Shown here piece by piece: positions 8,024 through 64,000 of a DNA stretch of 64,000 nucleotides. The number at the start of each line of letters is the position of its first letter. The stretch's first letter is position 1. The notes beneath the pieces are model-generated. The model saw nothing but the letters and a program-made list of their open reading frames with translations. It had not been told where the DNA came from and searched no databases. Made by a program: the position numbers and the translations under genes. Source of the stretch: Mycoplasma sp. CAG:877 (GTDB lineage Bacteria; Bacillota_I; Bacilli_A; RF39; UBA660); contig HF992498.1 of assembly GCA_000433455.1 (NCBI GenBank), positions 49,922-113,921 on the forward strand. Reading direction: 5' to 3'.

Positions 8024-9652
8024 TTATTTAGAACCATTACTTGAACCAAATCCATCTATAGAACCAGTTTTAACTAAAGATTTATAACTCTCACTAACAT
8101 CACTTTTACTTGAACTTGACTTAATTTCTTCTAAAACTCTACTTTGCCAATTACCACGATGTATAACTCTTTTACATTGTTTACTATCAATTAATTCTCT
8201 CTTAGTTAATTGAGATAATCTATGAAAATCACTAAAATCCATAATATAAATAGCATCTCCCATAGATACACGCCCTGTATTAACATTATCAAAATATTTT
8301 TCTAAAACTACACATCCATTAGAATGAACATACGCTATATACCCCTCAAAAGTTCCTAAACCCTGAAGTGTACAAAAAGGATCTTGTGACTCATGAAATG
8401 ACTTCTTTTCTAAATAGATATTCATTAAATGTTCTCGGTACTTTTCCTTTTCCTCTTCACTCATTCCTATAGTTCTCTTAGAAACATTTACTGTAAAAGC
8501 CTCATCTAACCCTCTACTGTCAGGAATAAGTTCCCAATTAGCCGATAAATCATTCAAATAACTACTCATAAACTCTTCTACTTCACTAGGTGTCATAGTA
8601 GAAAAATCAACTGACTTAAGTGTTACAGTTTTTAACTCTGGATTACTAATTAATAACTTCTTATATCTATCCAATAATATTTTCTGTGTAACAATATATC
8701 CTTCTTGATCAGGAATACTATCAAAAATAGACTTATATTTTCCAACAGATACCTCTAAATCACTATTAATATCATCACCTAACTCATAAAAATAATTAGA
8801 AACATAATATAAATATTTTTGTTTAAGACTTCCATCAACCATCTCTGCACATTCTAAATATTTATGAGCAACATAAAGTTCAAACTTACTAAACTCCTCT
8901 TTCGATAAAGCTGTTAACTCTATTGGATTTTGATGTAAAAAATTCATAACTTCCGAAAAATTATCAACAATATACATAAATAAATCAGCACATGCATTAG
9001 CATACTTCTTAGGATTCAACTCCTCATCTGCCATACTAAAAATATCATCAAGACTCATAGTTGAACCAGAACTTTTCTTAACTGTTTCCTCCAATTTTAC
9101 TCTATTATTATTGGTAAGTACTATCATCCCAATTAAACTCTTCATTCTCTGAGCAATCTTTTTAAACTCAAAAGCCCTTACATAACTTTGATACAATACT
9201 GGAAACTCTCTAGCTAATTTTTTATCTGTATATACTTTTCTTAATAAAGCAATTTTCTCTCTGAAATCAGAACTTTCAGTAAAAAAATCTCCTACTTCTC
9301 CAGATGATAAACTCATATTAAGACTATAAAAGATAGTTGAACAAATAGCTTCTTTCGAAAAACATAATTGTTTATTAACACTATCACCATCTTGTATAAT
9401 ATTTAGTGTTTGAAATATTTCTACATCTGGATAATATTCTACTTTACTCCTTAAAAACTCTATTAAATTTGCTAAACCTTTATCTAAAGAATCTTTTAAT
9501 TCTTCGCTTTTACTACATAAATTTAAAATATCACTAGCTAATAAAGAAACCGGTGCATCAACTGGTATACCTTTATTAATAATCTTCTCTACACTCTCCA
9601 CTGTTTTTCTCCCATCTCTAAATAGTCCGTTAATTATACCATAATCAAGCAA
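8024..9652 (-). CDS. Hypothetical protein, tandem paralog 1 (unknown family)
   Basis: 542-aa ORF with a TTG start at 9652. An alternative GTG at 9601 behind GGGAG would align its N-terminus (..INKGIPVDAPV) with paralog 2. The two share LKSVDFSTM(T/S)P.EV.EFM..YL..LSANWE.IP and a C-terminal ..RVIHRGNWQ motif. Confidence 0.5.
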   Translation of the reverse strand: MLDYGIINGLFRDGRKTVESVEKIINKGIPVDAPVSLLASDILNLCSKSEELKDSLDKGLANLIEFLRSKVEYYPDVEIFQTLNIIQDGDSVNKQLCFSKEAICSTIFYSLNMSLSSGEVGDFFTESSDFREKIALLRKVYTDKKLAREFPVLYQSYVRAFEFKKIAQRMKSLIGMIVLTNNNRVKLEETVKKSSGSTMSLDDIFSMADEELNPKKYANACADLFMYIVDNFSEVMNFLHQNPIELTALSKEEFSKFELYVAHKYLECAEMVDGSLKQKYLYYVSNYFYELGDDINSDLEVSVGKYKSIFDSIPDQEGYIVTQKILLDRYKKLLISNPELKTVTLKSVDFSTMTPSEVEEFMSSYLNDLSANWELIPDSRGLDEAFTVNVSKRTIGMSEEEKEKYREHLMNIYLEKKSFHESQDPFCTLQGLGTFEGYIAYVHSNGCVVLEKYFDNVNTGRVSMGDAIYIMDFSDFHRLSQLTKRELIDSKQCKRVIHRGNWQSRVLEEIKSSSSKSDVSESYKSLVKTGSIDGFGSSNGSK

Positions 9653-47441: not shown

Positions 47442-48564
47442 GTGCACTTTAAATTGATTCAACGATATAAAGATCCTAAGCCTACTAAAAATGGTAGAGC
47501 TTGATATTTTAAGTTTAGCTATAAAGATATATTTGGTGCTACTAAACAATATAGATCTAAAAGATATTTAACTAAAAAGGAAGCATCTGATGCAGAAAAA
47601 ATGTTTTAGTTACTTCTACTGATAAAGTTGAAGATAACAATATGACATTTAAGGATTTATATGATGAATTTAGAATGCATAACGATGAAATAATGAAAGA
47701 TACTACTAAGTACGGTTATGATAATAAAGAAGAATTTATAGAATGCTTCTATCCTGTTAAAGTAAAAGATTTTAATATTATGCAATTTGAACAATGGAAA
47801 CGAGAAATAAATAAACTTAATATATCTCTTAGATATAAAAATGATATTTATAAATTTCTTAAATCTATTTTAAATTTTGGAGTTAAATGGCATAACTTAA
47901 ATTTTCAGGCAGTATATAATAAGATGACGAAGTTTCAAGATCCTAACGAACGTAGAAAAGAAATGACTTATTATACTTATGATGAATTTAAAAAGTTTAT
48001 TTCTAATGAAGAAGACTTAAGATGGAAATGTGTATTTGAAATACTATATTATTGTGGACTACGTAAAGGAAAATTAAAAGGCCTTACTTGGAAAGATATT
48101 TATTTTGATAAAAAAGTATTATCAGTTAATAAACAAATAACCCAGCGAAATAACCGTGTTAAATTCGAATTTTCGGATACTAAGACAAGAGATAGTAGAA
48201 GAATAGTTCCTATCACTAAAGTCTTGTTAAATGACCTTAAAATGCTTTATGAACAGAATAAAAAAGAGTATTACGGATTTAATGATGATTTCTTTGTTGT
48301 ATTTGATGCTAAACCTATAGCTGATTCTAATATATATCTAAGAAGAACTAAATTAGCAACACTTGCAGGTTTAAAAGTTATTAGGATTCATGACTTTAGA
48401 CATTCGTGTGCATCACTGCTTATTAACAATGGCGCTAATGTTACATTAGTTGCCAAATATTTAGGTCATACAAAAATCGAGGAAACCCTAAATACATATT
48501 CACATATGTTTAGTACCGCCTCGACTCTGTGGTTTCTGTTATAGATAGTTTAGAAGACGACTAA
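47442..48564 (+). pseudogene. Tyrosine recombinase / phage-type integrase, disrupted
   Basis: The N-terminal arm-type region ..RYKDPKPTKNGRA*YFKFSYKDIFG.. has an in-frame TGA at 47502-47504 where Trp is expected. A frameshift in the A6 run at 47596-47601 separates it from the MTFKDLYDEF.. frame. The catalytic region (RIHDFRHSCASLL..GHTKIEETLNTYSH) is intact. A probable third frameshift near 48520 follows (the alternative frame reads RLDSVVSVIDSLEDD*). Confidence 0.7.
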
Positions 48565-48565
48565 G

Positions 48566-49777
48566 CTATTTTTTATATCTAAATTTATGATCTTTTGCCC
48601 ATTTTTCAATTGATGTTTTAGTTTTTTCAAATTCATCATTGTTGATAGTAACTCCTATTAATTGCATTATATATATTCTTATAGAATGACTTAATTTCCA
48701 ATTTGCATAAATATTTTCAAGTTGATAAAATACATTTTTTTCTTCATTCATATTTAAATGTGAAAGATAATGTCTATGTTCTTTTGACTTAAATAAGAAT
48801 ATAGGTGTATTATGTTGATCTCCAGCTAATTTTAAATCTCTTTTAACTAATAATGTACTAATTACTGAATTTTGCAAAAAACAGAACTCAAGTATTTGCC
48901 ATAGATCCATTTTTACGCCTGGATTCATTGTTTTAAATAAACCTTCTAATAACTGAACTAACATGGAATTTTTAATTTCTACATAGAAATCGCCATTCAT
49001 ATTAGTCATTAATAAGTCAAATATTATTTTTGTCTGCTTTCTAAGCTTTTTAAATGCTTTTATTTGTTTTTTTGAAATACTTTGTGGATCAATATAAGAT
49101 AAAATTCCATTTGTGGATGATCTATATATACCTTTTCTTTGAATATATTTTGGTGCATTCTCTATATATAAAACAATTTCTTTCTCATTAAAAATACTTA
49201 TTTGATCAACTCTTGGTATATCTCCTAAATATAAAAAAGTCATTTCAAGAATTGTGTATATGATGTTAGAAAGTTTGTCATATTTATATTTTTTTGAACT
49301 TGATACTGTATAATCTATAATTACCTTATCATTATCAAATAGTCTTTTTATACTTATCTCAATATCTTTATCATATTTAAAATCTACATTTGAAATATAC
49401 AAAGAAAACTTTTTAGGCATAGATGTTCTAAAAACCAATTTATTTGTTTCCACATTTCTTTCATCTGTTATCACATTTTCTAATATATATTCAATTGGAG
49501 CAGTATATATTTTTAATTCATCTTTCAATTTAAAACCAAATATACAATTAAAGCAGCTGTAATACATTCCATTTTCATCGCATAAATATACAGCTTTATT
49601 TGTATTCAATTTTTCTGGAGTCATTACTAATTCTGCACAATTAAGATTAAAAGCACTCTTGAGCACATCAAACGATATAATAAGATTAATAATTCTAGAT
49701 TCTACATCAAATGTTCCTGTCACATCAAAAAAGTTTTCTTTATCAACACTTATTCTTGTAATTTTTCTACTATTCAT
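48566..49777 (-). CDS. ApeA-like single-gene defence candidate (N-terminal ApeA-type domain plus C-terminal HEPN-like Rx4H)
   Basis: 403 aa from ATG 49777 (behind AGAGGGA). The C-terminal helical region carries EHRHYLSH (R-x4-H). No other motif was recognised. Confidence 0.4.
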   Translation of the reverse strand: MNSRKITRISVDKENFFDVTGTFDVESRIINLIISFDVLKSAFNLNCAELVMTPEKLNTNKAVYLCDENGMYYSCFNCIFGFKLKDELKIYTAPIEYILENVITDERNVETNKLVFRTSMPKKFSLYISNVDFKYDKDIEISIKRLFDNDKVIIDYTVSSSKKYKYDKLSNIIYTILEMTFLYLGDIPRVDQISIFNEKEIVLYIENAPKYIQRKGIYRSSTNGILSYIDPQSISKKQIKAFKKLRKQTKIIFDLLMTNMNGDFYVEIKNSMLVQLLEGLFKTMNPGVKMDLWQILEFCFLQNSVISTLLVKRDLKLAGDQHNTPIFLFKSKEHRHYLSHLNMNEEKNVFYQLENIYANWKLSHSIRIYIMQLIGVTINNDEFEKTKTSIEKWAKDHKFRYKK

Positions 49778-49814
49778 ATTTATCCCTCTTTCAATAATTA
49801 CATCACCATTTGTT

Positions 49815-49848
49815 TTAAAAAAGAAAAAGCCTCCAAAATGGAGGCGCA
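49815..49848 (-). terminator. Rho-independent terminator between the antitoxin gene and the ApeA-like gene
   Basis: On the minus strand, GCCTCC-atttt-GGAGGC is followed by TTTTTCTTTTTT. Confidence 0.6.
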
Positions 49849-49910
49849 CTCATCAGAGTGAAATACCACATATAAATGTGCATTAATTAAATGTCTTTAA
49901 TCAATATATA

Positions 49911-50870
49911 TTATTCATAAACTTTATTGAAATATTCTTTTATAAAATCTATGCTAATAGTACCACTATTTACAGAATTTATCCACGGATCTTCATCATG
50001 AGTTAAGTCAATTAAGGAACCAGCTTCTATTTGGCCATAGCTTGATACAACCAATTCAATTATTTTCTTTAGTCCATCACAAACTTCATAATCTGTTTTA
50101 GGTGTAGCAATTGGATTACGACCTTTATATTGCTGATAAACTTCTTCTACTACTGGTCCATATTGCCATGCAGATATGCTATTTGAAAACGCTGGTTTTC
50201 CATATATTCTTAAAGCCATTCCTTGAATGTAATATAATAATTTTTGAAGTTTTAAAGGAGTAATATACTCAGCAGCTCCACAATTATCTTCTATTCCATA
50301 TTTCTTACTAACATTATCAATCTGAGTATTATATTCAATAATTAATTGATTAGTAACATAATTAATTGATTCAGTTTCAAAATTCAAATTTATATAATCA
50401 TTAATATTAAAATCTGCAATTTTATGGTGTTTTAACCTTTTTAATGCACTCACTTTTTTTAGAAAGCTACTAAAATCATTATCAGATAAATTAGCTTGAT
50501 TTTTAATCAATAAATTATACATGATATCAGGATCTTCGCTAAGTCTTATAATTGAATCAACTGACTCAGTTTGTATAGAACCATTTTCAAATCTATGTAT
50601 TGTAATTTCACCAACACCAATTGATAAAGCAAACTCTTTTTGATTCATATCATATTTTTTTCTTATATTTTTAATTTCTGAAGAAGTTAATAAATTCATT
50701 TGCTTTTTATATATGTCATATAATCTGGCATCATTTTCAATTTCTATGTTTCTATCAAACACTTCTTCTCCTGTTGTAGGGTCAATCATGTAGTATTCAT
50801 CAAATTCTATAATTTTCCCCTTAACATTAGCTTCAATTCTCCTTGTTTTAACATTTTCTCTACTATCCAT
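49911..50870 (-). CDS. Antitoxin: MqsA-like (zinc-less) N-domain + XRE HTH fused to Panacea (DUF4065/SocA-like) domain
   Basis: The HTH is IKNIRKKYDMNQKEFALSIGVGEITIHRFENGSIQ. The Panacea core is LKLQKLLYYIQGMALRIYGKPAFSNSISAWQYGPVVEEVY. The RBS is AGGAGGGA. Confidence 0.65.
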   Translation of the reverse strand: MDSRENVKTRRIEANVKGKIIEFDEYYMIDPTTGEEVFDRNIEIENDARLYDIYKKQMNLLTSSEIKNIRKKYDMNQKEFALSIGVGEITIHRFENGSIQTESVDSIIRLSEDPDIMYNLLIKNQANLSDNDFSSFLKKVSALKRLKHHKIADFNINDYINLNFETESINYVTNQLIIEYNTQIDNVSKKYGIEDNCGAAEYITPLKLQKLLYYIQGMALRIYGKPAFSNSISAWQYGPVVEEVYQQYKGRNPIATPKTDYEVCDGLKKIIELVVSSYGQIEAGSLIDLTHDEDPWINSVNSGTISIDFIKEYFNKVYE

Positions 50871-50881
50871 ATTTATCCCTC

Positions 50882-51190
50882 CTAATTTTCATCCTCATGA
50901 CAAGATAATATCTTAATTTGATTATTCTTATACTTCAATTTAGTATAAAATATAACATTAGGTATTATCTCTTTCTTAAAGATGAATAATTCTTCCCCTG
51001 GGCAATCTCGATCTGGTTCTGGTCCTTTGTATAAATCCTCTGCTTCTAAACTGGCAATATAATCTTCAATGTCATATTGTGATAATCCATATTTACGCTT
51101 TGAATTTCTATTTTTTACTGTTGGAACCATGTCATAATTTCCAGATTTTATGGATGATTTTGTTTTTACTAATATTTCTGACACTTCCAA
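50882..51190 (-). CDS. MqsR-like toxin candidate
   Basis: 102 aa, upstream of the antitoxin as in mqsRA. The ..EDLYKGPEPD..ELFIFKKEI..VIFYTKLKYKNNQIKILSCHED layout resembles the MqsR C-terminal beta-sheet pattern. TTG start behind GGTGAT. Confidence 0.5.
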   Translation of the reverse strand: MEVSEILVKTKSSIKSGNYDMVPTVKNRNSKRKYGLSQYDIEDYIASLEAEDLYKGPEPDRDCPGEELFIFKKEIIPNVIFYTKLKYKNNQIKILSCHEDEN

Positions 51191-51310: not shown

Positions 51311-51499
51311 TTACTTTACTATTGACATTTCCTCATAATCTTCTTCGTTACCAATTCTTTTTAAATAATCTTTACCTCCATCAATTGCTACTGTTCCACA
51401 TGAACATCTTTTATAATCATTAGTGCTTTTCGATTCTATAATATTTCCACATTTTTTACATTTAATTTTATTACTAATTATTTCTTCTTTCTTTTCCAT
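51311..51499 (-). CDS. Small zinc-ribbon protein (CxxC..CxC)
   Basis: 62 aa, KCKKCGNIIES..YKRCSCGTVAIDGGKDYLKRIG. The RBS is GGAGGAGA. Confidence 0.55.
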   Translation of the reverse strand: MEKKEEIISNKIKCKKCGNIIESKSTNDYKRCSCGTVAIDGGKDYLKRIGNEEDYEEMSIVK

Positions 51500-51921: not shown

Positions 51922-51944
51922 GTACCTAAATGGGTACCTAAAAT
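51922..51944 (+). repeat. Direct-repeat motif GTACCTAAATGG-GTACCTAAAAT (copy 2 of 3)
   Basis: Lies ~50 bp upstream of the TnpV pseudogene start. Confidence 0.7.
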
Positions 51945-51991: not shown

Positions 51992-52354
51992 ATGAATATA
52001 ACTTATACAAAATGTGGTGATTATTTATTACCAAATTTAATACTTGCTGAAAAAGAAAATAAACTTTTAAATAAATATGGATTATTAAGATTATAATACT
52101 TAAAAAGTAATAAGAAAGCATTATATCAAGAATTACTTATGAAAAACAAATTGAATGAGCATCTTTTTTCAGTCAGTATAATAGCTGAAGATAGAATTAA
52201 TAACATAGTTAATAACTTAATAGAATTAGATTCATCAATTACGTAAAAATTGAAATCTGAAAATCAATTACTATGGGTTCAAAAAATGAATAATTGTAAA
52301 AATACTGCTGAAGAAATTGTTTTAAAGAAAATTATTTATGGAGATGAAATATGA
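51992..52354 (+). pseudogene. TnpV-family gene with two in-frame TAA codons
   Basis: MNITYTKCGDYLLPNLILAEKENKLLNKYGLLRL*YLKSNKKALYQELLMKNKLNEHL..SSIT*KLKSENQLLWVQKMNNCKNTAEEIVLKKIIYGDEI matches the TnpV pattern. The stops are at 52094-52096 and 52244-52246. Confidence 0.65.
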
Positions 52355-52662
52355 TTAAAGGTAAAGAAGATATTACAGATAAAGAATTTGAAGAAATATT
52401 ATTACCATTCTATAACAACTATAATGAATATCTTATTAAATTTGTAATACCTGACGCAATAGCATTTTATTTAGCAAATGGATATAGTAGAAATTGTTTA
52501 TCAGATTGTCCATTAATCAATCATATTAATTCAGCACTTGATATATTTAATGTTAGATGTAATGTTGATGAATTAATGTCTGAAATAGACTTAGTTTTAA
52601 AAATAAAATATAATCTTAAAATTGCAAAAAATAATCCACTAAAATTAATAGAAGTTCTATAA
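52351..52662 (+). CDS. Hypothetical protein
   Basis: 103-aa ORF with an ATGA overlap with the TnpV frame. No motif recognised. Confidence 0.4.
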   Translation: MIKGKEDITDKEFEEILLPFYNNYNEYLIKFVIPDAIAFYLANGYSRNCLSDCPLINHINSALDIFNVRCNVDELMSEIDLVLKIKYNLKIAKNNPLKLIEVL

Positions 52663-52696: not shown

Positions 52697-52720
52697 AACT
52701 TATATTTGGGATTAATATCA

Positions 52721-52786
52721 TTGCCTAGCCAGCACTGAATTTGCACTCCCGTACGAAATTCAAATGTGGGAAAATCCCAAACCCTT
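52721..52786. repeat. Inverted repeat IR-A (partner of 59825..59889)
   Basis: The reverse complement reads aagggtttgggattttcccacatttgaatttcgtacgggagtgcaaattcagtgctggctaggcaa. IR-B reads aagggtttaggcattcccacatacgaatttcgtacaggagtacaaattcattgctttctagacaa. By hand count, roughly 54 of 66 aligned positions are identical. Confidence 0.8.
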
Positions 52787-55128
52787 TATGTATTGTTTAT
52801 TTGATTAATTCTGTCATAGTCAGTTGATAATAATTCAAATTGACCATTATAATCTTTTTTAATAAATTTTATTATAGCTTTACAACTTTCAATATAGTGA
52901 TTGTCTTCAAAATGTTCACCATCATGTACTTCATCTATTGTAGCATGAGAACCTTTATTAACTATTTTCATTAGAGATTGTAATGCAACTTTTGAAATAT
53001 CATAATCAGAAATATTATTGGATATATTATCAATTATTTTATTTAAATAATATTTAGAAGACGTAGATTCATTATCGTTAATTGGATATTCAAATCTAGA
53101 AATTGTTTCTAATACATATCTACAGTAATTATGAATATACAGTTTTTGTTTTTTATCAATTGTATTCGTCTTGTATATTTTAAATATTTCTTTCAATTTT
53201 TCTAGATATATTGAGTCAAGATTTTCGTTATCAATAATTATTTTAGTTTTACCATTAACTTCAGTTAAATTAAGATATGTTGCTGTTTTTTTATAATCAA
53301 ACTTAAATAAATTCATGAACAAAGTATTATGAGAAGATATTATAAACTGAGAATTAGGATTTTCTTCTATTATATTATTTATATAATTATATATTCCATA
53401 TAAATTTGGATAATCAACTGATGATATAGGATCATCAATCAAAATTATATTTTTTTCATTTTCCGAATAATATAATTCTAACTCTGCAATAAATAAAGAA
53501 AATGCAACAATACTTTTCTCGCCATTACTCAATAACTTATCTACGCAAAAACTAACTTTCTCTCCATTTAAACATAAATCGAATTCTTCATCTACTCTAT
53601 AATTACTAATGTTAAAATCATCTAAAATGTCATTCATTTTTTTCAACAAAATATTTTTTTCTCTAAGTTCTTTTTCATATTCTTCTTTCAAAGGTTTTAA
53701 TTCTTCAATAATTTGTTTTATTTTATTTTCAGAGTCAATTAATTGTTTTATATCATCTTTCATTGACTCATAAGTTAAATAAATAGCAACATTTTGAAAA
53801 TAGTCATCATTTCTTCGAGTTTTATCACTTGTTGAACTATCAACTTTTTTATTGATATCATTAATATTTTTTGTTAAATCACTATATAATTTTTGAATAT
53901 CATTCAATTCTGTAACATCAACATTATCTATAGATTTACTACTATCAACGAATAAGTAATTATCTAAACTTTTTTGTTTTAGTATATTTACTATTTTATC
54001 TAAATATAAATTCAGCTTATTTTCTAAAGAGTTAATCTGATTATATAAATTACTTTTGAAAATACTATCTAAATATTGTGCATTAGTTTTTACTAACTCA
54101 AAAGAATGTTTTGAATTGTTTTTATAATTACTAAATCTATTTATTTCGCTAGTTAAATATGTTTTCATCTTATTAATTCTACTATCAACATAATCTTTAT
54201 ACATATTAACTAATTCATTTCCTTTTATATCAGACCCACAAAATGGACAGCTATCATTAGTAATATGGCTAACACCATCTAATTTCCATTTTCTGAGTTC
54301 TTCACTTAAACTGTCTAAAATTTCACGAGCTGATTTTGTCTTTGTCTCATCTTCGTTAAAAGTCAATGATTTATTAACATTAATAATATCTTGTTCTATA
54401 GAAGGAAGATCTAAGAAATCAATGTTTAAATGTATTTTGTTACTATCATTTAAATCTTTAAGACTTTGTATATATTTAATATGTTCTAACCTTTTTTTAT
54501 TTAAATCATCTATAACTTCTTTTTCTTGTGGATTTATTAATTTTAATTTTTCTATTGCAAACATTGAATAATTTTTATTATTATCTTTAGTAGAAGTATC
54601 TTTTTTTAGGTTTTCAATATTATCCTTTATTTGTTTGTTTATTTTTTCTACAAGTTCTTCTTTGCGCTTTTGTTCTATTTTACCAATTTTTATTTTATCT
54701 AAATATTTAGTTTTTGACTGTAATTCTACACCATAATTTAGATTTTTTTCTTGAAATTTGTTATTTTTAAAGTCTTCTTGATATGTAATTTTTAAGTCAA
54801 TATATTCTTGATTAAAAACTGGTATCTTAATTGGATTTATAATGCTATTCCCTGTAAAAATATTAGATGTATTATTATCAAAATTAATTTTTACATTTAA
54901 ATCTTTTATAGCTCTTTTTGTCTTTAATTGTAATAAATCATCAATGTATTCTTTTCCCTCTATATATTTATTATTAGTATAAAAAAGTTTTGAAATAGAA
55001 CTTTTTCCACTACCATTTTTACCATAAATGAATATACAATTTGTCTTTTTATCACTTGGAATTTTTATTTCTTGAGAATCAATAAATTTTGTAAATGAAC
55101 TTTCAATATTAATACTTGTTATCTTCAT
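52786..55128 (-). CDS. AAA_13-type ABC/SMC-like ATPase, RloC/PrrC-like
   Basis: Walker A YGKNGSGKSS, a long coiled-coil insert with zinc-hook-like CPFCGSDI, ABC signature LSNGEKSIVAFSLF, and Walker B IILIDDPISSVD. The C-terminal region has CRYVLE and VNKGSH. Confidence 0.6.
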   Translation of the reverse strand: MKITSINIESSFTKFIDSQEIKIPSDKKTNCIFIYGKNGSGKSSISKLFYTNNKYIEGKEYIDDLLQLKTKRAIKDLNVKINFDNNTSNIFTGNSIINPIKIPVFNQEYIDLKITYQEDFKNNKFQEKNLNYGVELQSKTKYLDKIKIGKIEQKRKEELVEKINKQIKDNIENLKKDTSTKDNNKNYSMFAIEKLKLINPQEKEVIDDLNKKRLEHIKYIQSLKDLNDSNKIHLNIDFLDLPSIEQDIINVNKSLTFNEDETKTKSAREILDSLSEELRKWKLDGVSHITNDSCPFCGSDIKGNELVNMYKDYVDSRINKMKTYLTSEINRFSNYKNNSKHSFELVKTNAQYLDSIFKSNLYNQINSLENKLNLYLDKIVNILKQKSLDNYLFVDSSKSIDNVDVTELNDIQKLYSDLTKNINDINKKVDSSTSDKTRRNDDYFQNVAIYLTYESMKDDIKQLIDSENKIKQIIEELKPLKEEYEKELREKNILLKKMNDILDDFNISNYRVDEEFDLCLNGEKVSFCVDKLLSNGEKSIVAFSLFIAELELYYSENEKNIILIDDPISSVDYPNLYGIYNYINNIIEENPNSQFIISSHNTLFMNLFKFDYKKTATYLNLTEVNGKTKIIIDNENLDSIYLEKLKEIFKIYKTNTIDKKQKLYIHNYCRYVLETISRFEYPINDNESTSSKYYLNKIIDNISNNISDYDISKVALQSLMKIVNKGSHATIDEVHDGEHFEDNHYIESCKAIIKFIKKDYNGQFELLSTDYDRINQINNT

Positions 55129-55208
55129 ATTTTACCTCTTAAATCTTAAACTTTTAATTTATAGGCATATTTCAGCCATTTTTATATATACTATTAAAGA
55201 CATAGTTA

Positions 55209-55237
55209 TTGACAAATACTAAATTATTTGCTATATT
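55209..55237 (+). promoter_or_regulatory. Consensus-like sigmaA promoter of the intergenic sRNA candidate
   Basis: TTGACA (55209-55214), a 17-nt spacer, then TATATT (55232-55237). Confidence 0.6.
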
Positions 55238-55243
55238 AATTAT

Positions 55244-55320
55244 GTCAAAAGCAATCAATTTGCTTGGGGTTCGTGGTATCGCGGACGGTAAGAACTGGTT
55301 TAACCAGTTCTTATTTTTTT
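55244..55320 (+). ncRNA. ~77-nt structured sRNA candidate, opposite in orientation to the flanking defence genes
   Basis: Three hairpins: AAGCAA-tcaat-TTGCTT; GTTCGTG-gtat-CGCGGAC (with G-U pairs); and the terminator AAGAACTGG-tttaa-CCAGTTCTT + ATTTTTTT. No RBS. Confidence 0.5.
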
Positions 55321-55322
55321 GC

Positions 55323-56168
55323 TTAAGGAAATATTTTTATTCCCTTATTTTTATAATTTGGATATCCATCAATCTTATCTTCAAATGTTAAAAATGCTTT
55401 ATCTTTTGAATTTCTTTTTACATATTTATGAATTGGATAAGAAAATAAATCTGTTATCTCAAGTCCAACATAAGTAGAACTATATTCTTCATTCCATTTA
55501 GGATTAAAGTATACTCCATCAATTTTAGTTTGCAATTCTTTTGAACTTATTTTTTTAGTACCTGTTTTATTAATAACTTTACTAATGTGTTCTAATAATT
55601 CTTTGTCTTCCTCTTTTCCTCTAGCCTCAAGCATTATTACTCCCTTTTTATTATTATCAGTTGCATAAATATATCTTTCCAACAAAAAATCAAATGCCAC
55701 ATTATAAACATTATGTGTATATCCTTTTTTTAAATATTCATACAAATTAATACTAATTGAAATTATTTTACATTTTATATTCTTCATTGAATTAGTCAAA
55801 TCAACCATAAACTCGTCATAATTGATAACACTATCATTAAAGCAATTATCATGTTTTCTTATATCTCTTGAATGAAAGCATACAGCTCTATCTTGTTTCA
55901 ATTTAGTATCATAAAACATTCCATTTTTCCAATAATTATTTTTTAATAAATTTATTATTTTTTTCGAGTCCATATATTCTTTCTTTGTAAAAATACACCC
56001 AGTAATGGTAAAGTACTTATCATCTTCTGACACCTCTTTATCATTAGATATTTGCTTTAATACATAAGTTAAATTACTACTGCTACCATTTTCATCAATA
56101 CACATAACATAATCTATATCTTTTTTCATTAATAAAATTTTAGTAGGCTTTTCACTCCATTTTGACAT
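55323..56168 (-). CDS. DUF3800-family protein
   Basis: The N-terminal ..YVMCIDENGSS.. matches the DUF3800 DE(S/N)G motif. 281 aa; RBS GAGGTG. It starts 25 nt after the R-M gene stop. Confidence 0.55.
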   Translation of the reverse strand: MSKWSEKPTKILLMKKDIDYVMCIDENGSSSNLTYVLKQISNDKEVSEDDKYFTITGCIFTKKEYMDSKKIINLLKNNYWKNGMFYDTKLKQDRAVCFHSRDIRKHDNCFNDSVINYDEFMVDLTNSMKNIKCKIISISINLYEYLKKGYTHNVYNVAFDFLLERYIYATDNNKKGVIMLEARGKEEDKELLEHISKVINKTGTKKISSKELQTKIDGVYFNPKWNEEYSSTYVGLEITDLFSYPIHKYVKRNSKDKAFLTFEDKIDGYPNYKNKGIKIFP

Positions 56169-56193
56169 ATCTTACACCTCATTTCAATTACTA

Positions 56194-58977
56194 TTAACTC
56201 TTTTCAGTTAATAATTGATACATTTTCATCAGTTCAGCTACACATTCTGATTCAGTCATAATTTTCCAATTAAATCCATACGCTTCCATTACAGCAACAT
56301 CGTTTGCTTGATGAGCTTTTCTTAATTCCACGGGCATGGTTAATTCATCATATAGATCAGCAAGGGAACTATTTGGATATTTTGCTCTAGCATCTAATAT
56401 CATTTGTGCTGTTTGTTCAATTTTATCTCTTTGTTGAGATGTTGGATTAGGTAATGGAAAATTATTATAGACAATATCTTTTGAATATCTATAGTCGCTT
56501 TTTAGTCTACCACAAACAGTTCTTGTCCAAGACATATGTACATTTGATGTTAAAATTCCAAAATCATATAAATCAGCATTAGGAATAATCAATGTACCCA
56601 TTACTGGAATAGTTTTATCGTCCAAGAATCCGATTGGTATATATCTTCTTCTTTCTGATGAAACACAAGGTATTATTAGATAACTTTTTGGATTAATTTG
56701 TTCTCTAAATAATGTTGGAGTGTTTGCTAACTTTAATGATTCCTCAGTATTTGCCTTTATTCTATCTTCTCTACATTTATTTACTCTTTCTAATACTAAA
56801 GGCATACTTCTCAACTCACTAGGTTCACATCCAACTAACCATAAACAATATCTTTCTTTATTATTAATAAATTCTTGAGCCCCGACCATCCTCTTTATCC
56901 ATTTTTTTGATTGTGGACATTTTGATATAAAATCAGTATATTCATTCTTTTCAATTTTTAAATTATTGTAATCACAAGGCTTATTAGGAGCAATCATCTT
57001 TTTTCTTAAATCAAATGGCTTATTTCTGCTTTCAATAAAAACATTAGGTGCAGATACTAAATAAGGATTAATATTATTAGTTTTTAATACTTTACCGTTA
57101 TCAAATATAATTTTTTTATCTACAAGATTTTTACAACTAAAACCAATTATTACACAATGAACATGTGCTTTTAGGCTTGCTTCACTATCCCATCTAAATG
57201 TACGATGAGCAAAATTTATAGTAATTCCCATTTCTATAATAGGTTTCCATATAATTCCAGTTTGCTCTCCTTGAGTTATCGAATTAGTGGAAACAAACGC
57301 ACATTTAATTTCAGTTTCTAAAATATATTTAGACGCTAAATAAAACCAGCATGTAACATAATCTAGTGTCCTATATTTAATTTTAGAATTATTTTCAAAA
57401 ACATAATCCATATCCAACTTTTGCTCTTTATCTGAATATTTAGAACCAACAAAAGGTGGATTACCCATTATATAACTACATTTATTATTTGAAATAACAT
57501 CGTTCCAATTTATTCTTAAAGCATTTTCCTCAACTATATTATCATAAGTTTCTAATGGTAAAAAATCACTTATATTTGTAAAACTAGATATTATCTTTTT
57601 AGTTTCAGTCCACATTTGAGCTTCTGCAATCCAAAGTGCAGTTTTAGCAACTTTAACAGCAAAATCATTTACCTCTATTCCATAAAATTGTTGAATTGAA
57701 ACGTTTATTGTATCAGCTATATCCAACATCATCATACCTTTAGACATAGCTGATAACATTTCATTTTCCAATCTTCTTAAAGATAAGTATGTTTCTGTTA
57801 AAAAGTTACCTGAACCACAAGCCGGGTCTAAAAAATTAAGTGATGCTATATAATTTTGAAATTCTATTAATTTCTCATTTCTTGTTTTCTCATTTTTATA
57901 TGCTAATGCATCATCTAATTTTTCTCTTAATTCATTTAAAAACAATGGGTCAATTACTTTATGAATATTTTCAATTGAAGTATAATGCATACCTCCAGAT
58001 CTTCTAGTTTCTGGATTTAATGTTGATTCAAATACTGCACCAAATATAGTTGGAGATATTTCAGACCAATCAAAATCATCAGATGCTTTAGCTAACAAAG
58101 TATCTCTTATCTCTTCAGTAAATAAAGGTATTTCTATATTTTCATTAGAAAACAATCCACCATTAACATAAGGAAATTGGTTTAAATCATCATCTAGATA
58201 AGGATCTCTATCTTCTAATTTTGTATCTAAAATTTTAAATAGTTCAATTAAATTTTTCCTCATTAAAACTAAATTATCATATTTACTTAAATAATCATGA
58301 AAAACATTTTTTCTTCCAAATAAGCCTGCATCTTCAGCATATAAACAAAATACTAATCTAACGCATAATTCATTTAAATCTTTTTGTGACTGCTCATTAG
58401 TTATATCTTTATATTGCTTAGAAAAAGCATCATAAAGTTTTCCAACTAATTCACCTGCTTTAAATGATAATTCTTCCTCTTTTTTTAAATGCTCGCTTTT
58501 TTCATCTACTAAAAATGATAAACGATAATATTCTTTTGGTAAATTTTTTAATAGTATTTCTTCTGGTTCACTGTTAGGATTATTCATATCATAAACAAGA
58601 AATGATTTAAAATTACATGTAATAACCCATTTTGGATGCTTAGACACAGGAAGTTCAGCAATATATTTTTTTGCTTGTTGAAAAGGATTAAGTAAACTAC
58701 CATCTGATTGTTTTATCGGCTTTCTTAAATCTTTTTCGATACTCTTTTGTTCAATTAATACTTTTGTACTTGGAATGTATCCATCTATAAAACCCGTTGT
58801 TTTATCAATATGAACTTGATCTTCAAATTCAATAAATTCACTAATTTTTTCTACGCCAAACACATCAGTTAATAATGTTGTCCAAAATATTTGTGATTGC
58901 CCCTTTTCATATCCTTTATCTTTCCAAAACTCTGCAAATTCTTTTGCTCTATTCTTTTTTTCTAAATCAGTCATCAT
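56194..58977 (-). CDS. MmeI-family type IIL restriction-modification enzyme (nuclease + N6-adenine methyltransferase + TRD in one chain)
   Basis: 927 aa. N-terminal PD-(D/E)XK (FIDGYIP..VLIEQKS), MTase motif I FLDPACGSGNFL and motif IV GNPPFVG. MmeI-like blocks run throughout: CAFVSTNSITQGEQ, INFAHRTFRW, VHCVIIGF, NINPYL, RRYIPIGF, YRYSKDIVYNNFP, SLADLYD..MP.ELRKAHQ. Confidence 0.85.
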   Translation of the reverse strand: MMTDLEKKNRAKEFAEFWKDKGYEKGQSQIFWTTLLTDVFGVEKISEFIEFEDQVHIDKTTGFIDGYIPSTKVLIEQKSIEKDLRKPIKQSDGSLLNPFQQAKKYIAELPVSKHPKWVITCNFKSFLVYDMNNPNSEPEEILLKNLPKEYYRLSFLVDEKSEHLKKEEELSFKAGELVGKLYDAFSKQYKDITNEQSQKDLNELCVRLVFCLYAEDAGLFGRKNVFHDYLSKYDNLVLMRKNLIELFKILDTKLEDRDPYLDDDLNQFPYVNGGLFSNENIEIPLFTEEIRDTLLAKASDDFDWSEISPTIFGAVFESTLNPETRRSGGMHYTSIENIHKVIDPLFLNELREKLDDALAYKNEKTRNEKLIEFQNYIASLNFLDPACGSGNFLTETYLSLRRLENEMLSAMSKGMMMLDIADTINVSIQQFYGIEVNDFAVKVAKTALWIAEAQMWTETKKIISSFTNISDFLPLETYDNIVEENALRINWNDVISNNKCSYIMGNPPFVGSKYSDKEQKLDMDYVFENNSKIKYRTLDYVTCWFYLASKYILETEIKCAFVSTNSITQGEQTGIIWKPIIEMGITINFAHRTFRWDSEASLKAHVHCVIIGFSCKNLVDKKIIFDNGKVLKTNNINPYLVSAPNVFIESRNKPFDLRKKMIAPNKPCDYNNLKIEKNEYTDFISKCPQSKKWIKRMVGAQEFINNKERYCLWLVGCEPSELRSMPLVLERVNKCREDRIKANTEESLKLANTPTLFREQINPKSYLIIPCVSSERRRYIPIGFLDDKTIPVMGTLIIPNADLYDFGILTSNVHMSWTRTVCGRLKSDYRYSKDIVYNNFPLPNPTSQQRDKIEQTAQMILDARAKYPNSSLADLYDELTMPVELRKAHQANDVAVMEAYGFNWKIMTESECVAELMKMYQLLTEKS

Positions 58978-59042
58978 TAAATACCTCCAATTCTTACTTA
59001 ATTAGTTATAATTTAATTTTTGTTTAAATTGCAATTAACTTC

Positions 59043-59699
59043 TCATAAAATTTTATATTTAAATATTATTATCATTATCAATAAAATTATTGCTATAATT
59101 AATTTTCCAACATTTTCTATAAAGTTATAATAAATTATCAAAATTCTTGATAATAGTATTTTTTTGTTGTCTAAATCATTAATTCTTATTTTTAATAAAT
59201 CAATGATATCCACCTTTTCACCAGTAAAATCATATTTCATTTTTTTTATGACTCTCGAAGAAATTATTAATAATTTCATGGTTTCTAGGGTACTATTTTT
59301 TTCTTCTTTTGTTTTTTTACCATTTTTATTATTTTTGTATAAATAATGTTGATATGTAGCAATTGCTTTTATTGTTGATTTTGAAGAATATAGAATTGCA
59401 TCATGGCTAATTAGTTTTATAATTTCTACATCTTCTGTTTTTCCCTCTAATCCAATATTTTTTTTGTATATCTCTATACATTTATTAAAATCATATAGCA
59501 ATAAACTACTCCAAAACTTTAAAATTCTCTCTTGTACATTTATTCCTTCTCTTTTAAAATAATCGGACGTAATACTTTTATTATTATTCTTTGATGTTAA
59601 AAAAGCTGTGATAAAAGCGACAAAAATTGTACATGCAAAACCAATAATAGTTAATAAATTTTCACCCGATAATGTTGTTTTTAAAGATTCAACCATCAT
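59043..59699 (-). CDS. Hypothetical 2-TM protein (first gene of the cassette)
   Basis: 218 aa from ATGATG 59699 behind GGAGGTG. TM segments lie near both ends (LLTIIGFACTIFVAFITAFL; LIIAIILLIMIIIF) around a helical soluble middle. Confidence 0.45.
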   Translation of the reverse strand: MMVESLKTTLSGENLLTIIGFACTIFVAFITAFLTSKNNNKSITSDYFKREGINVQERILKFWSSLLLYDFNKCIEIYKKNIGLEGKTEDVEIIKLISHDAILYSSKSTIKAIATYQHYLYKNNKNGKKTKEEKNSTLETMKLLIISSRVIKKMKYDFTGEKVDIIDLLKIRINDLDNKKILLSRILIIYYNFIENVGKLIIAIILLIMIIIFKYKIL

Positions 59700-59824
59700 A
59701 CACCTCCAATTAAGACTAAATTGATCATGATGAATTCCCTGGTATTTTTCTAGTAAATTTGCAGTAAAATTCATATCATTTAATAATTATTATGAAAATA
59801 ATTTTTTATTTTAAAATTTCAATC

Positions 59825-59889
59825 AAGGGTTTAGGCATTCCCACATACGAATTTCGTACAGGAGTACAAATTCATTGCTTTCTAGACAA
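59825..59889. repeat. Inverted repeat IR-B (partner of 52721..52786)
   Basis: See IR-A. Both copies keep an internal hairpin: GAATTT-13 nt-AAATTC. Confidence 0.8.
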
Positions 59890-59981
59890 ATATTATATTT
59901 CCAATGACAGCAATGACGCCTTTATTACACCATACCCATATATCTCTATTTCTTGTCATATTGTCATTACTAACTAAAAAA

Positions 59982-60593
59982 TCATTCTTCTTCAGTAAGT
60001 AATTTTTTTAAATCATCAAGAGATTGTTTTTGTTTTTTTATTTCTTTTTCATTATCTTTAACATAATTTTTAATTACTTTGATAACTCTATTTTTGTCCT
60101 TTTTATTTAATTCAGAAATAAAATTTAACTCTTCTAAATCACAGTTATCTAATAATTCTTTAATAACCATTTTCATATATAGTTCATCTTGCATTTGATT
60201 AACTATATCATCTAGTACTAAAATCGGAGCATTTTCTGGCTTAATAACCATACTACTATAAGAATTATTTACTGTTGAATCTATTTCTTCCTTACTATAC
60301 TCACATAGTTCCATTAACATCTCTAAGGATAGATTTAATACTGAACTTAACTTTTTTAAAGATAATACATTAGGCTTCTTTCTTTCACCTTTTTCAATTT
60401 TAGCAATCGTATTATTATCTATACCAGTTATTCTTGATAATTCCCTTTATACATTAGGTTTCTTTCTTTCGCCTTTTTCAATTTTAGCAATTGTATTATT
60501 GTCTATACCAGTTATTCTTGATAATTCTCTTTGGGATATATTAATTTTCTCTCTAGCTTCTTTTACTACACTAGCTAAAGTTTTATCATTCAT
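59982..60593 (-). pseudogene. XRE-family HTH regulator interrupted by TAA inside an 84-bp in-frame tandem duplication
   Basis: A single frame runs from ATG 60593 to the stop at 59982-59984, except for TAA at 60447-60449. The upstream part is MNDKTLASVVKEARENINISQRELSRITGIDNNTIAKIEKGERKKPNV*. The HTH segment then repeats and continues into the 112-aa track ORF (59982..60320). Confidence 0.65.
60367..60534. repeat. 84-bp tandem duplication (60367-60450 / 60451-60534)
   Basis: The units differ at 60375/60459, 60387/60471, 60408/60492, 60417/60501 and 60444/60528. All five are third-codon synonymous changes. 60449/60533 creates TAA vs CAA. Confidence 0.85.
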
Positions 60594-60725: not shown

Positions 60726-60745
60726 GTACCTATTTGGGTACCTAA
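60726..60745 (+). repeat. Direct-repeat motif GTACCTATTTGG-GTACCTAA (copy 3 of 3)
   Basis: Lies upstream of the XRE promoter, near the right edge of the island. Confidence 0.65.
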
Positions 60746-62596: not shown

Positions 62597-64000
62597 CTAT
62601 CCTTCTGTTATATCACTAATTAATTTTTTCTTTAATACATCTTCATCACTATTCTTATCAAGTAAGTACTCTTTAGAATCTTTCTTAGCCTGTAATAATA
62701 TCTTATAATCTTCTCTTATATTAGCAATCTTAAAAGTCATATCTCCTGATTGTTTAGTTCCAAATAAATCTCCATGACCTCTTAATTTAAAGTCTTCCTC
62801 ACTAATAACAAACCCATCATCAACAGTTTCCATTATTTTTAATCTTTCAGTATCACTATCACTAATTAATATACACTGTGACTTAGAAGTACCTCTACCA
62901 ACTCTACCTCTTAATTGATGTAACGTTGAAAGTCCAAATCGATCTGCATCAAAAATAACCATTGTCGTAGCATTAGAAACATCTACCCCAACTTCTATAA
63001 CTGTTGTTGATATAAGTATTTGTATTTTATTTTCTTTAAATTGTTCCATTATTGCTTCTTTTGCTAAAGCTGCCATCTTACCATGTACTATATCTATTTT
63101 ATATTTATCTCCAAAAGCCAACTTCATCTGATCTTTTAAATTACATACAGTAGCAAGATCACTAGAATTATCTGTATCTTCTATCAACGGAGCAATAACA
63201 TACACCTGATGTCCTTCTTTTAATTCTTTATACATCATTCCAAGTACATCTTTAATCTCACTATTTTTCTTTACATAAGTATCTATTTTTTGTCTACCTT
63301 TAGGTCTAGCCTTTATTGTAGAAACATCCATATCACCAAATATTGTTAAAGCATAAGTTCTAGGTATAGGAGTAGCACTCATATATAAAACATCTGGCTT
63401 AATTCCCTTATTTTGCAAATTTGCTCTTTGATGTACTCCAAAACGATGCTGTTCATCTGTAATTACTAAACCTAAATTATTATACTCAACCTCATCTTGT
63501 ATTAAAGCATGAGTACCAACAACCATTGAAATACTTCCATCTTTTAATCCTTCATATATTCTAACTTTATCCTTCTTAGGAGTAGAGCCAGTAAGTAACT
63601 CTACATTAATATTACTATCTCCTAAAAAATTCTTTAAGTTATTATAATGTTGTGTTGCTAAAATTTCTGTAGGTGCCATTAAAGCACTTTGATATCCTGA
63701 TAAATCATTTGCAAGCATTGCAATAAAAGAAACAATCGTCTTTCCAGAACCAACATCACCCTGTAGCAATCTATTCATTCGACTACTAGATTCTAAATCC
63801 CCAAGGATCTCATCAACAGCTTTCAACTGATCATCAGTTAACTTAAATGGTAAACCATCAATAAACTTATCGATCTTCTCTCGATCAATACTTCTAGAAA
63901 GACCATTATTTTTTTTCTTATTTTGTAATTTCAAATAATTAATCTTAAACATAAAAGCAAATAACTCTTCATATTTAAGCCTAATCTTTACCTCTTTTAA
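62597..64000 (-). CDS. recG: ATP-dependent DNA helicase RecG (5' end beyond the window)
   Basis: LTDDQLKAV..LLQGDVGSGKT, TDEQHRFG, LYMSATPIPRT, QLRGRVGRG. The frame stays open from 63953 to 64000, so the N-terminal wedge domain is off-window. Confidence 0.85.
   Translation of the reverse strand, partial: LKEVKIRLKYEELFAFMFKINYLKLQNKKKNNGLSRSIDREKIDKFIDGLPFKLTDDQLKAVDEILGDLESSSRMNRLLQGDVGSGKTIVSFIAMLANDLSGYQSALMAPTEILATQHYNNLKNFLGDSNINVELLTGSTPKKDKVRIYEGLKDGSISMVVGTHALIQDEVEYNNLGLVITDEQHRFGVHQRANLQNKGIKPDVLYMSATPIPRTYALTIFGDMDVSTIKARPKGRQKIDTYVKKNSEIKDVLGMMYKELKEGHQVYVIAPLIEDTDNSSDLATVCNLKDQMKLAFGDKYKIDIVHGKMAALAKEAIMEQFKENKIQILISTTVIEVGVDVSNATTMVIFDADRFGLSTLHQLRGRVGRGTSKSQCILISDSDTERLKIMETVDDGFVISEEDFKLRGHGDLFGTKQSGDMTFKIANIREDYKILLQAKKDSKEYLLDKNSDEDVLKKKLISDITEG

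Follow-up and report, generated by a model that had tools for sequence, protein, structure and literature searches.

A four-gene cassette of defence type in a gut Bacilli genome and the conserved small RNA convergent with its DUF3800 gene

Do four neighbouring defence-type genes on a contig of Mycoplasma sp. CAG:877 make up one defence system, or are they separate modules that came to lie side by side? The genes lie in a stretch of 64,000 nt (contig HF992498.1, positions 49,922 to 113,921), called the window below. A first-pass annotation, made from the letters alone, took them for a possible new system in which a tRNA-cleaving ATPase is guarded by a restriction enzyme or paired with a DUF3800 protein. 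Our analysis indicates that the cassette is probably the variable cargo slot of a small integrative element that holds four autonomous modules, and not one system. The constant partner of the DUF3800 gene was found to be a small RNA (sRNA) gene on the opposite strand. The genes of the cassette are as follows, in window coordinates.

52786..55128, minus strand: RloC-family protein of 780 aa with a Rad50-like ABC ATPase head, a CPFC zinc-hook coiled coil and a C-terminal helical (HEPN-type) predicted anticodon-nuclease domain
55244..55323, plus strand: conserved sRNA of about 80 nt, convergent with the DUF3800 gene (covariance-model match, covariation, folding)
55323..56168, minus strand: DUF3800 protein of 281 aa with an RNase H2-like fold (PF12686, AlphaFold2, Foldseek)
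56194..58977, minus strand: MmeI-family type IIL (IIG) bifunctional restriction-modification (R-M) enzyme of 927 aa (Pfam, PADLOC and PDB matches)
59043..59699, minus strand: AbiN-like protein with two hydrophobic segments, 218 aa from Met26 (PADLOC AbiN); the open form of the reading frame is 59043-59774, 243 aa

The layout first reported for the four genes was upheld by the listing of open reading frames (ORFs) and a check of every quoted motif: all four are co-directional on the minus strand, with ribosome-binding sites (RBSs) and gaps of 65, 25 and 194 nt computed from the ORF coordinates. The Shine-Dalgarno sequences are AAGAGG (ATPase), GAGGTG (DUF3800), GGAGG (MmeI-type gene) and GGAGG (AbiN-like gene, before Met26). 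Inspection of the sequence found no RBS upstream of Met1 of the AbiN-like ORF at 59774, and its homologues are 210-225 aa long, so the start at 59699 (Met26, about 218 aa) is the better one. What had been passed over as a mere 194-nt spacer carries the conserved sRNA gene on its opposite strand.

The neighbourhoods of the ATPase were compared among 20 homologues. Those of DUF3800 were compared by tblastn in 40 genome loci, and in 47 loci for combinations of neighbours. Fetched loci are numbered with an L. The ATPase was found in the following settings.

L001 and L002, ATPase 98% identical: MmeI-DUF3800-ATPase kept, different backbones
L012, 65% identical: helix-turn-helix (HTH) gene, M.HpaII, R.HpaII, ASCH, ATPase, 234-aa protein
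L014, 68% identical: HTH gene, ATPase, SLFN_AlbA_2, HTH gene, start of an MmeI gene
L003 group, 47% identical: near MTaX1 and a Dcm-type (5-methylcytosine, 5mC) methylase
L007 group, 47% identical: after an integrase, followed by RhuM and an AlwI-type R-M system

DUF3800 was absent beside all ATPase homologues at 47-68% identity. Seen from the DUF3800 gene, the ATPase lies directly downstream in five of the 40 genome loci and in one remnant, MmeI lies directly upstream in five of 40 and in one remnant, and AbiN is absent from all 40. The 47 loci show 33 combinations of upstream and downstream neighbours, among them recG, NUDIX, MazG, UDG, a transglutaminase-like protein, a STAND-like NTPase, HamA with a helicase, an AAA_15/21 ATPase, tilS, ileS and a U5-methyltransferase. 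One locus (L074) carries AbiN-MmeI-DUF3800 at 96-98% identity with an orphan Dam-type methylase in place of the ATPase. Where the trio of MmeI, DUF3800 and ATPase is present, its identities can be mosaic (78%, 86% and 97% in L031; 68%, 85% and 73% in L060), which indicates recombination between modules. The full four-gene block recurs at 98-100% identity in two human-gut metagenome contigs (L091, L094); at this identity they represent the same element and are not independent evidence. The complete cassette was not found in plasmid and phage databases. Two candidates for a wider pattern were rejected. An 813-aa protein after DUF3800 in L017 was considered as a cryptic ATPase, but it has no Pfam or PADLOC match and no similarity to the ATPase. 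A tRNA theme among the chromosomal neighbours of DUF3800 (U5-methyltransferase, tilS, ileS) was set aside as speculation only, since the cases are too few, are not independent and are expected in small genomes.

The DNA around the cassette behaves as a backbone. BLAST comparison of the window with the fetched loci found an HTH gene, orf103, a TnpV remnant and a tyrosine recombinase in common, and the cargo between the HTH gene and orf103 differs between elements. The backbone features in the window are listed here.

47642..48544, plus strand: tyrosine recombinase at the far end of the island (Phage_integrase, 9e-28; 66% DNA identity to the integrase of the L014 element)
52351..52662, plus strand: backbone gene orf103, which closes the cargo slot; adjoins cargo in 16 loci and is followed by a TnpV gene in relatives; no Pfam match
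52706..52772: arm of the inverted repeat on the ATPase side, 67 nt long, with 79% complementarity to 59838-59904
59838..59904: inverted-repeat arm at the AbiN/HTH end, partner of 52706-52772
59982..60320, minus strand: backbone HTH-family gene, 112 aa here and 174-177 aa in relatives, homologous to the HTH_3 genes before cargo in L012, L014, L029 and others

The 67-nt inverted repeat is the longest in the region, and its arms enclose precisely the four genes. It also stands on either side of different cargo in L012 (3027-3079 / 8846-8900), L031, L069 and L092; it may serve for cassette exchange, bind a protein or act as an insulator. The core of the repeat, TGAATTTG(C/T)ACTCC(C/T)GTACGAAATTC, is itself a small hairpin. 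The recG gene (62597-63952) lies a few kb upstream of the slot. It lies likewise upstream of the slot or of the DUF3800 module in 11 other loci from different metagenome-assembled genomes (L029, L032-L034, L039-L042, L059, L060, L066), and in L032, L033 and L042 the DUF3800 module directly follows it at 300-365 nt. The 3' flank of recG looks like a conserved insertion hotspot, as judged from these arrangements. The 112-aa form of the HTH gene is not an assembly artefact, because it is 100% identical in L091. At the 5' end of this gene there is an 84-nt tandem duplication, 94% identical (60365-60448 and 60449-60532). A 20-nt direct repeat, GTACCTAAATGGGTACCTAA, stands at 51922-51941 and 60726-60745 (90% identical) and brackets orf103, the cassette and the HTH gene, 8.8 kb in all. 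Its right copy lies in a terminator-like palindrome, and the two copies may be the ends of an inner element.

The block that the window shares with unrelated DUF3800 contexts runs from 55154 to 56206 (BLAST), which is the DUF3800 gene and about 170 nt of its 3' flank. The flank holds three elements that belong to the sRNA gene or adjoin it.

55188..55215, minus strand: candidate promoter facing the ATPase (TTGTCA, 16 nt, TAGTAT; scan score 9/12)
55209..55237, plus strand: sRNA promoter (TTGACA, 17 nt, TG-extended TATATT; 11/12 consensus with TG)
55287..55315: terminator hairpin of 13 bp that abuts the DUF3800 stop codon, with a U-run after it on the plus strand and an A-run before it on the minus strand

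From its 5' end, the sRNA consists of hairpin A, GGGG, hairpin B (7 bp, GUAU loop), GGUAA, the terminator hairpin and the U-run. The architecture of promoter and terminator is kept in all 42 loci with a complete DUF3800 flank. Across 25 distinct flanks the -35 hexamer of the sRNA promoter is invariant and the -10 hexamer nearly so, and the terminator stem covaries between loci. Conservation across loci was the standard used for promoters, because a bulk scan in this AT-rich DNA found 87 sites where 75 were expected and is uninformative. Within the conserved block, the candidate promoter facing the ATPase and the sRNA promoter stand back to back with overlapping -35 hexamers. The spacing of the ATPase-facing site is not kept in the group at 60-63% identity.

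A covariance model of the sRNA (R1) matched the window at 55240-55325 with 102.5 bits. It found one sRNA per DUF3800 locus, always antisense to the gene, with L087 and its two copies as the exception, and none in loci that have the ATPase only. Every locus with a complete DUF3800 gene and 3' flank carries the antisense sRNA, and no intact gene was seen without it in the loci examined. The sRNA also stands beside DUF3800 remnants in L065, L066, L069, L080 and L092. Its core is better conserved than the protein-coding sequence. An independent metagenome scan for the core sequence yielded 18 copies judged true. Of these, 14 have a DUF3800 gene next to them (as low as 56% identical in protein), three adjoin a remnant that joins AbiN(1-60) to DUF3800(258-281), and the rest lie at a contig end. 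Another 11 matches were chance GC-rich ones with neither promoter nor terminator. The unit of DUF3800 and sRNA is common in human-gut Bacilli, and the core had 0 matches in viral contigs. The deletion variant that gave the remnant fuses AbiN codons 1-60 to DUF3800 codons 258-281 (L069 6059-6298, L080 4166-4405, L092 7656-7895); MmeI and most of both genes are gone and the sRNA is intact. The two copies in L087 are in tandem (137-221 and 278-364), beside a DUF3800 gene at 57% identity.

The structure is kept by compensating changes. In the covariance-model alignment, 97.7% of cells are paired and 15 of the 23 pairs changed on both sides, compared to a mean of 3.4 in shuffled alignments; none of 500 shuffles reached this number, and slid controls gave 6 or fewer. 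A plain MAFFT alignment, unfitted to the structure, gave 92.4% paired and 11 of 23 (shuffled mean 3.3, again 0 of 500; slid controls 9 or fewer). Helix A covaries at five of six pairs. In helix B, pairing is kept through changes from U.G to A-U, from U.G to U-A or C-G, and from G-C to U-A. Two positions of helix B keep U.G, and the opposite strand would have C.A mismatches there, which places the sRNA on the plus strand. The plus strand folds into three hairpins at a minimum free energy of -30.8 kcal/mol (z = -5.5), while the minus strand folds without helix B. A 60-aa ORF on the plus strand (55209-55391) was considered and dismissed: the TTG at its "start" is that of the -35 hexamer, and it is conserved in the manner of paired stems with indels in the loops.

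How does this sRNA relate to RNAs already described? An Rfam scan found no family at E<=1 over 18 kb, and none at E<=10 over the 216-nt spacer except terminator noise. Weinberg et al. 2017 described 11 mutually dissimilar RNA motifs associated with DUF3800, function unknown, that lie on either side and strand of the gene (PMC5737381). No DUF3800-x motif was matched in Rfam, where the presence of all 11 in Rfam 15 was not confirmed. The window sRNA shares with DUF3800-I to XI a structured RNA consistently beside DUF3800 and an end in a Rho-independent terminator (PMC5737381). It differs in being short, with three hairpins, always convergent, abutting or overlapping the stop codon and having a clearly defined promoter. 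As predicted from sequence and folding, it is a further, simpler RNA of the DUF3800-associated kind, and it is a new item of this analysis.

We favour a role for the sRNA as a dedicated partner of the DUF3800 protein, which it would serve as inhibitor or cofactor. Helix B and its G-rich flanks are kept more strictly than structure alone needs, the published RNAs occur on either side and strand of their gene, and the DUF3800 gene was never seen without its sRNA; each of these points favours a partnership of RNA and protein. Cis-antisense regulation of DUF3800 is the main alternative. On the gene strand no U-run follows the terminator hairpin, suggesting that the DUF3800 mRNA probably reads through into the sRNA gene. 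In type I toxin-antitoxin (TA) systems such as par/fst-RNAII and txpA-RatA, a convergent RNA shares a bidirectional terminator with the gene of a small membrane peptide toxin. The window pair has the convergence and the bidirectional terminator in common with these; in addition, the sRNA persists beside gene remnants and an intact DUF3800 gene was never found without it. The "toxin", in contrast, would be a 281-aa enzyme and not a small membrane peptide, and the overlap is limited to the terminator unless there is read-through. The tandem RNA repeats of type III TA (ToxIN-like) systems are absent, with a single sRNA per locus except for the two in L087.

The identification of the 281-aa protein as DUF3800 was correct. 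Its PF12686 match passes narrowly (25.4 bits with a cut-off of 21), the DENG25 N-terminal motif is present, and the residues invariant among relatives at 27-46% identity are D25, E26, E181, R183, K224 and E237. The AlphaFold2 (AF2) model has a predicted local distance difference test score (pLDDT) of 90.6 and a predicted template-modelling score (pTM) of 0.89. Its top Foldseek matches are RNase HII 1eke (probability 0.99), human RNase H2A 3puf and RNase HIII, with modest template-modelling scores of 0.4-0.5. This agrees with the RNase H-like fold assignments published for DUF3800 (PMC7736814, PMC10910872). The family is large, with 425 word-index matches and 458 clusters at the 50% level. DUF3800 is known from retron type VII (PMC7736814), as TPR-DUF3800 with Cas12a2 and Cas12a3 (PMC10910872, PMC13594972), and as Csx32 of Cas13 CASK (bioRxiv 10.64898/2026.08.25.746378). 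In those contexts it has the same RNase H2-like fold and N-terminal DE motif, and it lies beside RNA- or tRNA-cleaving effectors. The window protein differs from them: it is a stand-alone protein of 281 aa with no TPR or reverse transcriptase fusion, it has its own sRNA, and it has no fixed protein partner. A 35%-identical homologue occurs in the lysogeny module of the temperate Latilactobacillus phage TMW 1.1365 P2 (L100, 1824-2645), where it sits between repressor genes and integrase. Such a site is typical for prophage-borne exclusion genes.

The 780-aa ATPase had been given the AAA_13 layout of PrrC and RloC. The RloC half of this statement held and the PrrC half did not. The AAA_13 profile matched residues 15-735 (2.8e-39), and the PADLOC single-gene candidate PDC-S06 (PDLC04898) matched residues 6-768 to model positions 5-748 of 752 (5.1e-43). 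PDC-S06 is a candidate label, for which a literature search found no functional study. The motifs are GKNGSGKS36-43, CPFC294, LSNGEK533, IDDPI564 (with D572) and SHN599. Invariant in 18 homologues at 42-75% identity are Walker A, Q117, C294-P-F-C297, LSxGEK, IDDPI and SHN, together with two C-terminal blocks, NYCRYVxETxSRFE (R670, E674) and NKGSHA (S727, H728). The C-terminal triad reads R670-YVL-E674, then 53 residues, then S727-H728. The AF2 model (pLDDT 79) divides the protein as follows, by residue.

1-115: head lobe
137-287: long helices
about 281-300: apex at CPFC, low confidence
305-502: return helices
510-632: second head lobe
640-779: all-helical C-terminal domain

Its top Foldseek matches are Rad50, SMC heads and Lamassu LmuB. 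A PDB sequence search gave nothing useful and yielded no solved PrrC or RloC with which to compare the C-terminal domain. Two marginal matches, at about 20% identity, were found in viral contigs.

RloC is defined by ABC motifs, a coiled-coil insert with a CX2C zinc hook, and the motif Arg-X3-Glu-X36-52-His, often with Ser before His (PMC2610378). The window ATPase has the ABC motifs, a CX2C coiled-coil insert that splits the head (predicted as a zinc hook) and the R/E/H triad. RloC of Geobacillus kaustophilus (Davidov & Kaufmann 2008, PMC2610378) is likewise about 800 aa long with ABC motifs and such an insert. Set side by side from published positions, its triad R692/E696/H737 has the same relative position as R670/E674/H728. 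Both lie on a mobile element or island, near but outside an R-M locus, and a 47% homologue of the window ATPase (P0010) carries the JGI name "wobble nucleotide-excising tRNase". The window protein differs from RloC in being filed by PADLOC under PDC-S06, and its tRNase role is predicted from motifs. With PrrC of E. coli it has an ABC-type NTPase, the R/E/H triad and the logic of a "second line of defence" in common. PrrC, in contrast, is a compact protein of about 400 aa with no coiled coil or zinc hook; it is always encoded within a type Ic hsd locus and is kept silent by the enzyme of that locus. The window protein is 780 aa long with a helical insert of about 370 aa, and no hsd genes occur at 47.6-62.5 kb, where the sole R-M gene is of MmeI type. 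For these reasons we class it as RloC-type and not PrrC-type.

Enzymes of the MmeI family protect one strand with N6-methyladenine and cut about 20/18 nt from their site. The assignment of the 927-aa protein to this family was confirmed by all five Pfam domains in order (MmeI_N, MmeI_hel, MmeI_Mtase, MmeI_TRD, MmeI_C), a PADLOC REase_MTase_IIG match of 1150 bits, an end-to-end match to MmeI in PDB 5hr4 (E = 1.6e-192, residues 7-924) and intact catalytic motifs (D65-x10-E-x-K, DPACGSG384, NPPF506). One polypeptide thus has the family layout of PD-ExK nuclease, helical spacer, gamma-class N6A methyltransferase, target recognition domain and C-terminal domain, and it agrees with 5hr4 in length, domain order, PD-ExK, motif I and NPPF. 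For MmeI itself, methylation of one strand and cutting of unmodified DNA are described (PMC2582602, PMC2731913). In L001 (5601-8935), a 92%-identical copy of the trio, similarity ends at window position 58316. Gene calling gives the MmeI homologue there no more than 688 aa, and before it stands an unrelated protein of 414 aa with a weak P-loop match; the homologue has apparently lost or exchanged its N-terminal nuclease region.

The protein with two transmembrane segments had been suggested as a further effector of an ATPase-DUF3800 pair. This did not hold up: apart from its absence from the 40 DUF3800 genome loci, it matched PADLOC AbiN (PDLC02349, 7.3e-19; residues 63-210 to model positions 27-154 of 165), and an 83% homologue adjoins a CBASS-type operon. 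It has no Pfam match. The profile of AbiN, an abortive-infection protein of Lactococcus lactis, covers most of the window protein, which differs by a hydrophobic segment near each terminus (at about 37-61 and 217-243). It is an AbiN-family protein, and a role in abortive infection would follow from the family.

How would the locus work if the four modules are autonomous? An integrative element, with its integrase, HTH gene, orf103 and TnpV remnant, would have settled downstream of recG in the low-GC genome of an uncultured gut member of the Bacilli, and its slot, bracketed by the 67-nt inverted repeats, would hold four modules head to tail. Module 1 would be the AbiN-like membrane protein. Module 2, from what is known of its family, would methylate one strand and cut unmodified DNA about 20 nt from the site. 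Module 3 would be a unit of about 1.05 kb that pairs the RNase H2-like DUF3800 protein with a convergently transcribed RNA of about 80 nt under a strong promoter of its own; the RNA may inhibit the protein like an antitoxin, serve it as a cofactor or regulate the gene in cis as antisense. Module 4 would be governed as RloC is, whose Rad50-like head and hook silence a HEPN-type RNase and which cuts tRNA upon DNA breaks or failed restriction (PMC2610378, PMC3458546, PMC3874168, PMC3710099). By that analogy, the zinc-hook ATPase would keep the R670/E674/H728 RNase silent until DNA damage or failed restriction occurs; tRNA anticodon loops would then be cut and translation would stop. Together the four modules would make a layered defence in no stricter sense than a defence island does.

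Several findings weigh against the interpretation of separate modules around an RloC-type ATPase. The 20 ATPase homologues are a small sample. An R-M system lies within about 2 kb in five of five distinct ATPase contexts. The order MmeI-DUF3800-ATPase recurs at three levels of divergence within one family of elements, which leaves a small probability of some selective or functional linkage. The ATPase-facing promoter-like site, which lies inside the DUF3800 module and overlaps the sRNA -35, could couple expression. The Glu-to-His spacing of 53 in the ATPase is one beyond the published 36-52 (72 sequences). Whether the ATPase and DUF3800 genes are ever co-located elsewhere had been raised at the outset, and they are: the trio recurs at 98-100% and, in L060, at 68/85/73% identity. 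These loci belong to one family of related elements with mosaic identities.

One rival reading takes up the annotation's proposal of a guarded tRNase: in the style of PrrC, the RloC-like tRNase would be kept latent by contact with the adjacent MmeI-type enzyme and freed when a phage inhibits restriction. The two genes are co-directional and adjacent in the window and in L001, L002, L027, L031, L060, L071, L091 and L094, an R-M system was near the ATPase in every sampled context, and PrrC/RloC-type HEPN-ABC proteins have been noted in R-M neighbourhoods (PMC3710099). Those R-M types are unrelated (MmeI, HpaII, AlwI-type, and a 5mC Dcm-type methyltransferase with MTaX1), which makes a conserved protein-protein latch unlikely, and R-M genes are common in any defence island. 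The L074 block lacks the ATPase, other homologues of the ATPase lie apart from MmeI, and the identities of 78% and 97% in L031 show that MmeI and the ATPase do not co-evolve. The DUF3800-sRNA module, with its terminator hairpin and promoter-like site, intervenes between the two genes. RloC itself is reported to be rarely linked to R-M (8 of 72; PMC2610378) and to be governed by its own Rad50-like region, with a zinc hook and a DNA-dependent ATPase (PMC3458546, PMC3710099). We consider a guard of type IIL unlikely. The other early proposal makes the ATPase and DUF3800 a sensor and an effector after the model of Septu, PARIS or Gabija, to which the AbiN-like protein might add a further effector; we consider it very unlikely. 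An ABC-type ATPase with a nuclease-fold protein is a common defence design, and DUF3800 stands directly upstream of the ATPase in eight loci, one of them a diverged pair at 85/73%. The ATPase, however, already has its own effector domain and is modelled by PADLOC as a single-gene candidate; its relatives at 65-68% and 47% lack DUF3800; the protein after DUF3800 in L017 is unrelated to it; AbiN occurs at none of the 40 genome loci; and DUF3800 has 33 neighbour combinations, many with housekeeping genes.

Two further explanations concern the DUF3800 flank. The module could be a regulatory "leader", whose back-to-back promoters and antisense RNA gate a variable downstream effector, here the tRNase. 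Downstream of the module lies a gene of the same orientation in 37 of 39 loci, with a stereotyped distance of 170-270 nt, conservation runs past the sRNA promoter to just before the downstream RBS, and overlapping -35 hexamers would put the two promoters in competition. We find this improbable, given that several downstream genes are housekeeping ones (ileS, tilS) or plainly unrelated, that the outward promoter loses its spacing in the 60-63% group, that promoter-like matches occur at background frequency, and that co-orientation is the norm in strongly strand-biased genomes such as this one is by its GC skew. The flank could also be a bidirectional terminator and promoter DNA carried along with DUF3800 and encode no functional RNA. 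Hairpin C is a generic terminator, and Rfam yielded noise of terminator level only; yet helices A and B are not terminators, and the first covaries while the pairing of the second survives base changes. A consensus promoter at a fixed distance, a core kept at 56% protein identity and better conserved than the coding sequence, persistence beside five remnants and the tandem pair in L087 also speak for an RNA, and we regard its absence as extremely unlikely. An idea of another kind is that the DUF3800-sRNA pair forms a ribonucleoprotein tied to tRNA-cleaving effectors, an RloC-like nuclease here and Cas12a3 or Cas13 elsewhere. The complex might sense, process or clear cleaved tRNA, or gate the tRNase gene via the back-to-back promoters. 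We give this little chance; if true, it would account for the repeated occurrence of DUF3800 next to nucleases that target tRNA, and for the survival of the MmeI-DUF3800-tRNase trio over about 30% sequence divergence.

If the cassette is a cargo slot with autonomous modules, it is ordinary as a four-gene system: the supposed new combination becomes a defence-island mosaic of known kinds, namely an R-M enzyme, an Abi protein, an RloC-type tRNase and DUF3800. The DUF3800 module is of wider interest. DUF3800 genes attract unrelated structured RNAs, and the domain is also an accessory of Cas12a2, Cas12a3, Cas13 and retrons. The window offers a very compact case, about 1.05 kb with a 281-aa protein and an RNA of about 80 nt whose promoter, strand, structure and terminator are defined. 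The slot delimited by inverted repeats downstream of recG is a place to mine for further defence genes.

The composition of the region and the genes near the integrase gave some minor observations. The ATPase gene has a GC content of 20-21% compared to about 28%, and the island is more AT-rich than its surroundings. GC skew is negative nearly throughout positions 1-64000 (cumulative -20.9) and genes lie overwhelmingly on the minus strand, from which we take the minus strand of the window to be the leading strand. On the minus strand at 48566-49849, next to the integrase, a 427-aa protein has a weak Apea-like HEPN match (E = 0.008) with R-HYLS-H (Rx4H) near residue 360, and it may be another RNase effector. 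A toxin-antitoxin-like pair follows on the minus strand at 49911-51190, with a 102-aa protein that is weakly MqsR-like and then a 319-aa fusion of an MqsA-type zinc-ribbon/HTH antitoxin (TIGR03830, 1e-21) and a SocA/Panacea domain (4e-18). Between this pair and the TnpV remnant, at 51311-51499 on the minus strand, lies a gene for a 62-aa zinc-ribbon protein of the form CxxC...CxC that matches DUF7695 (5.5e-28).

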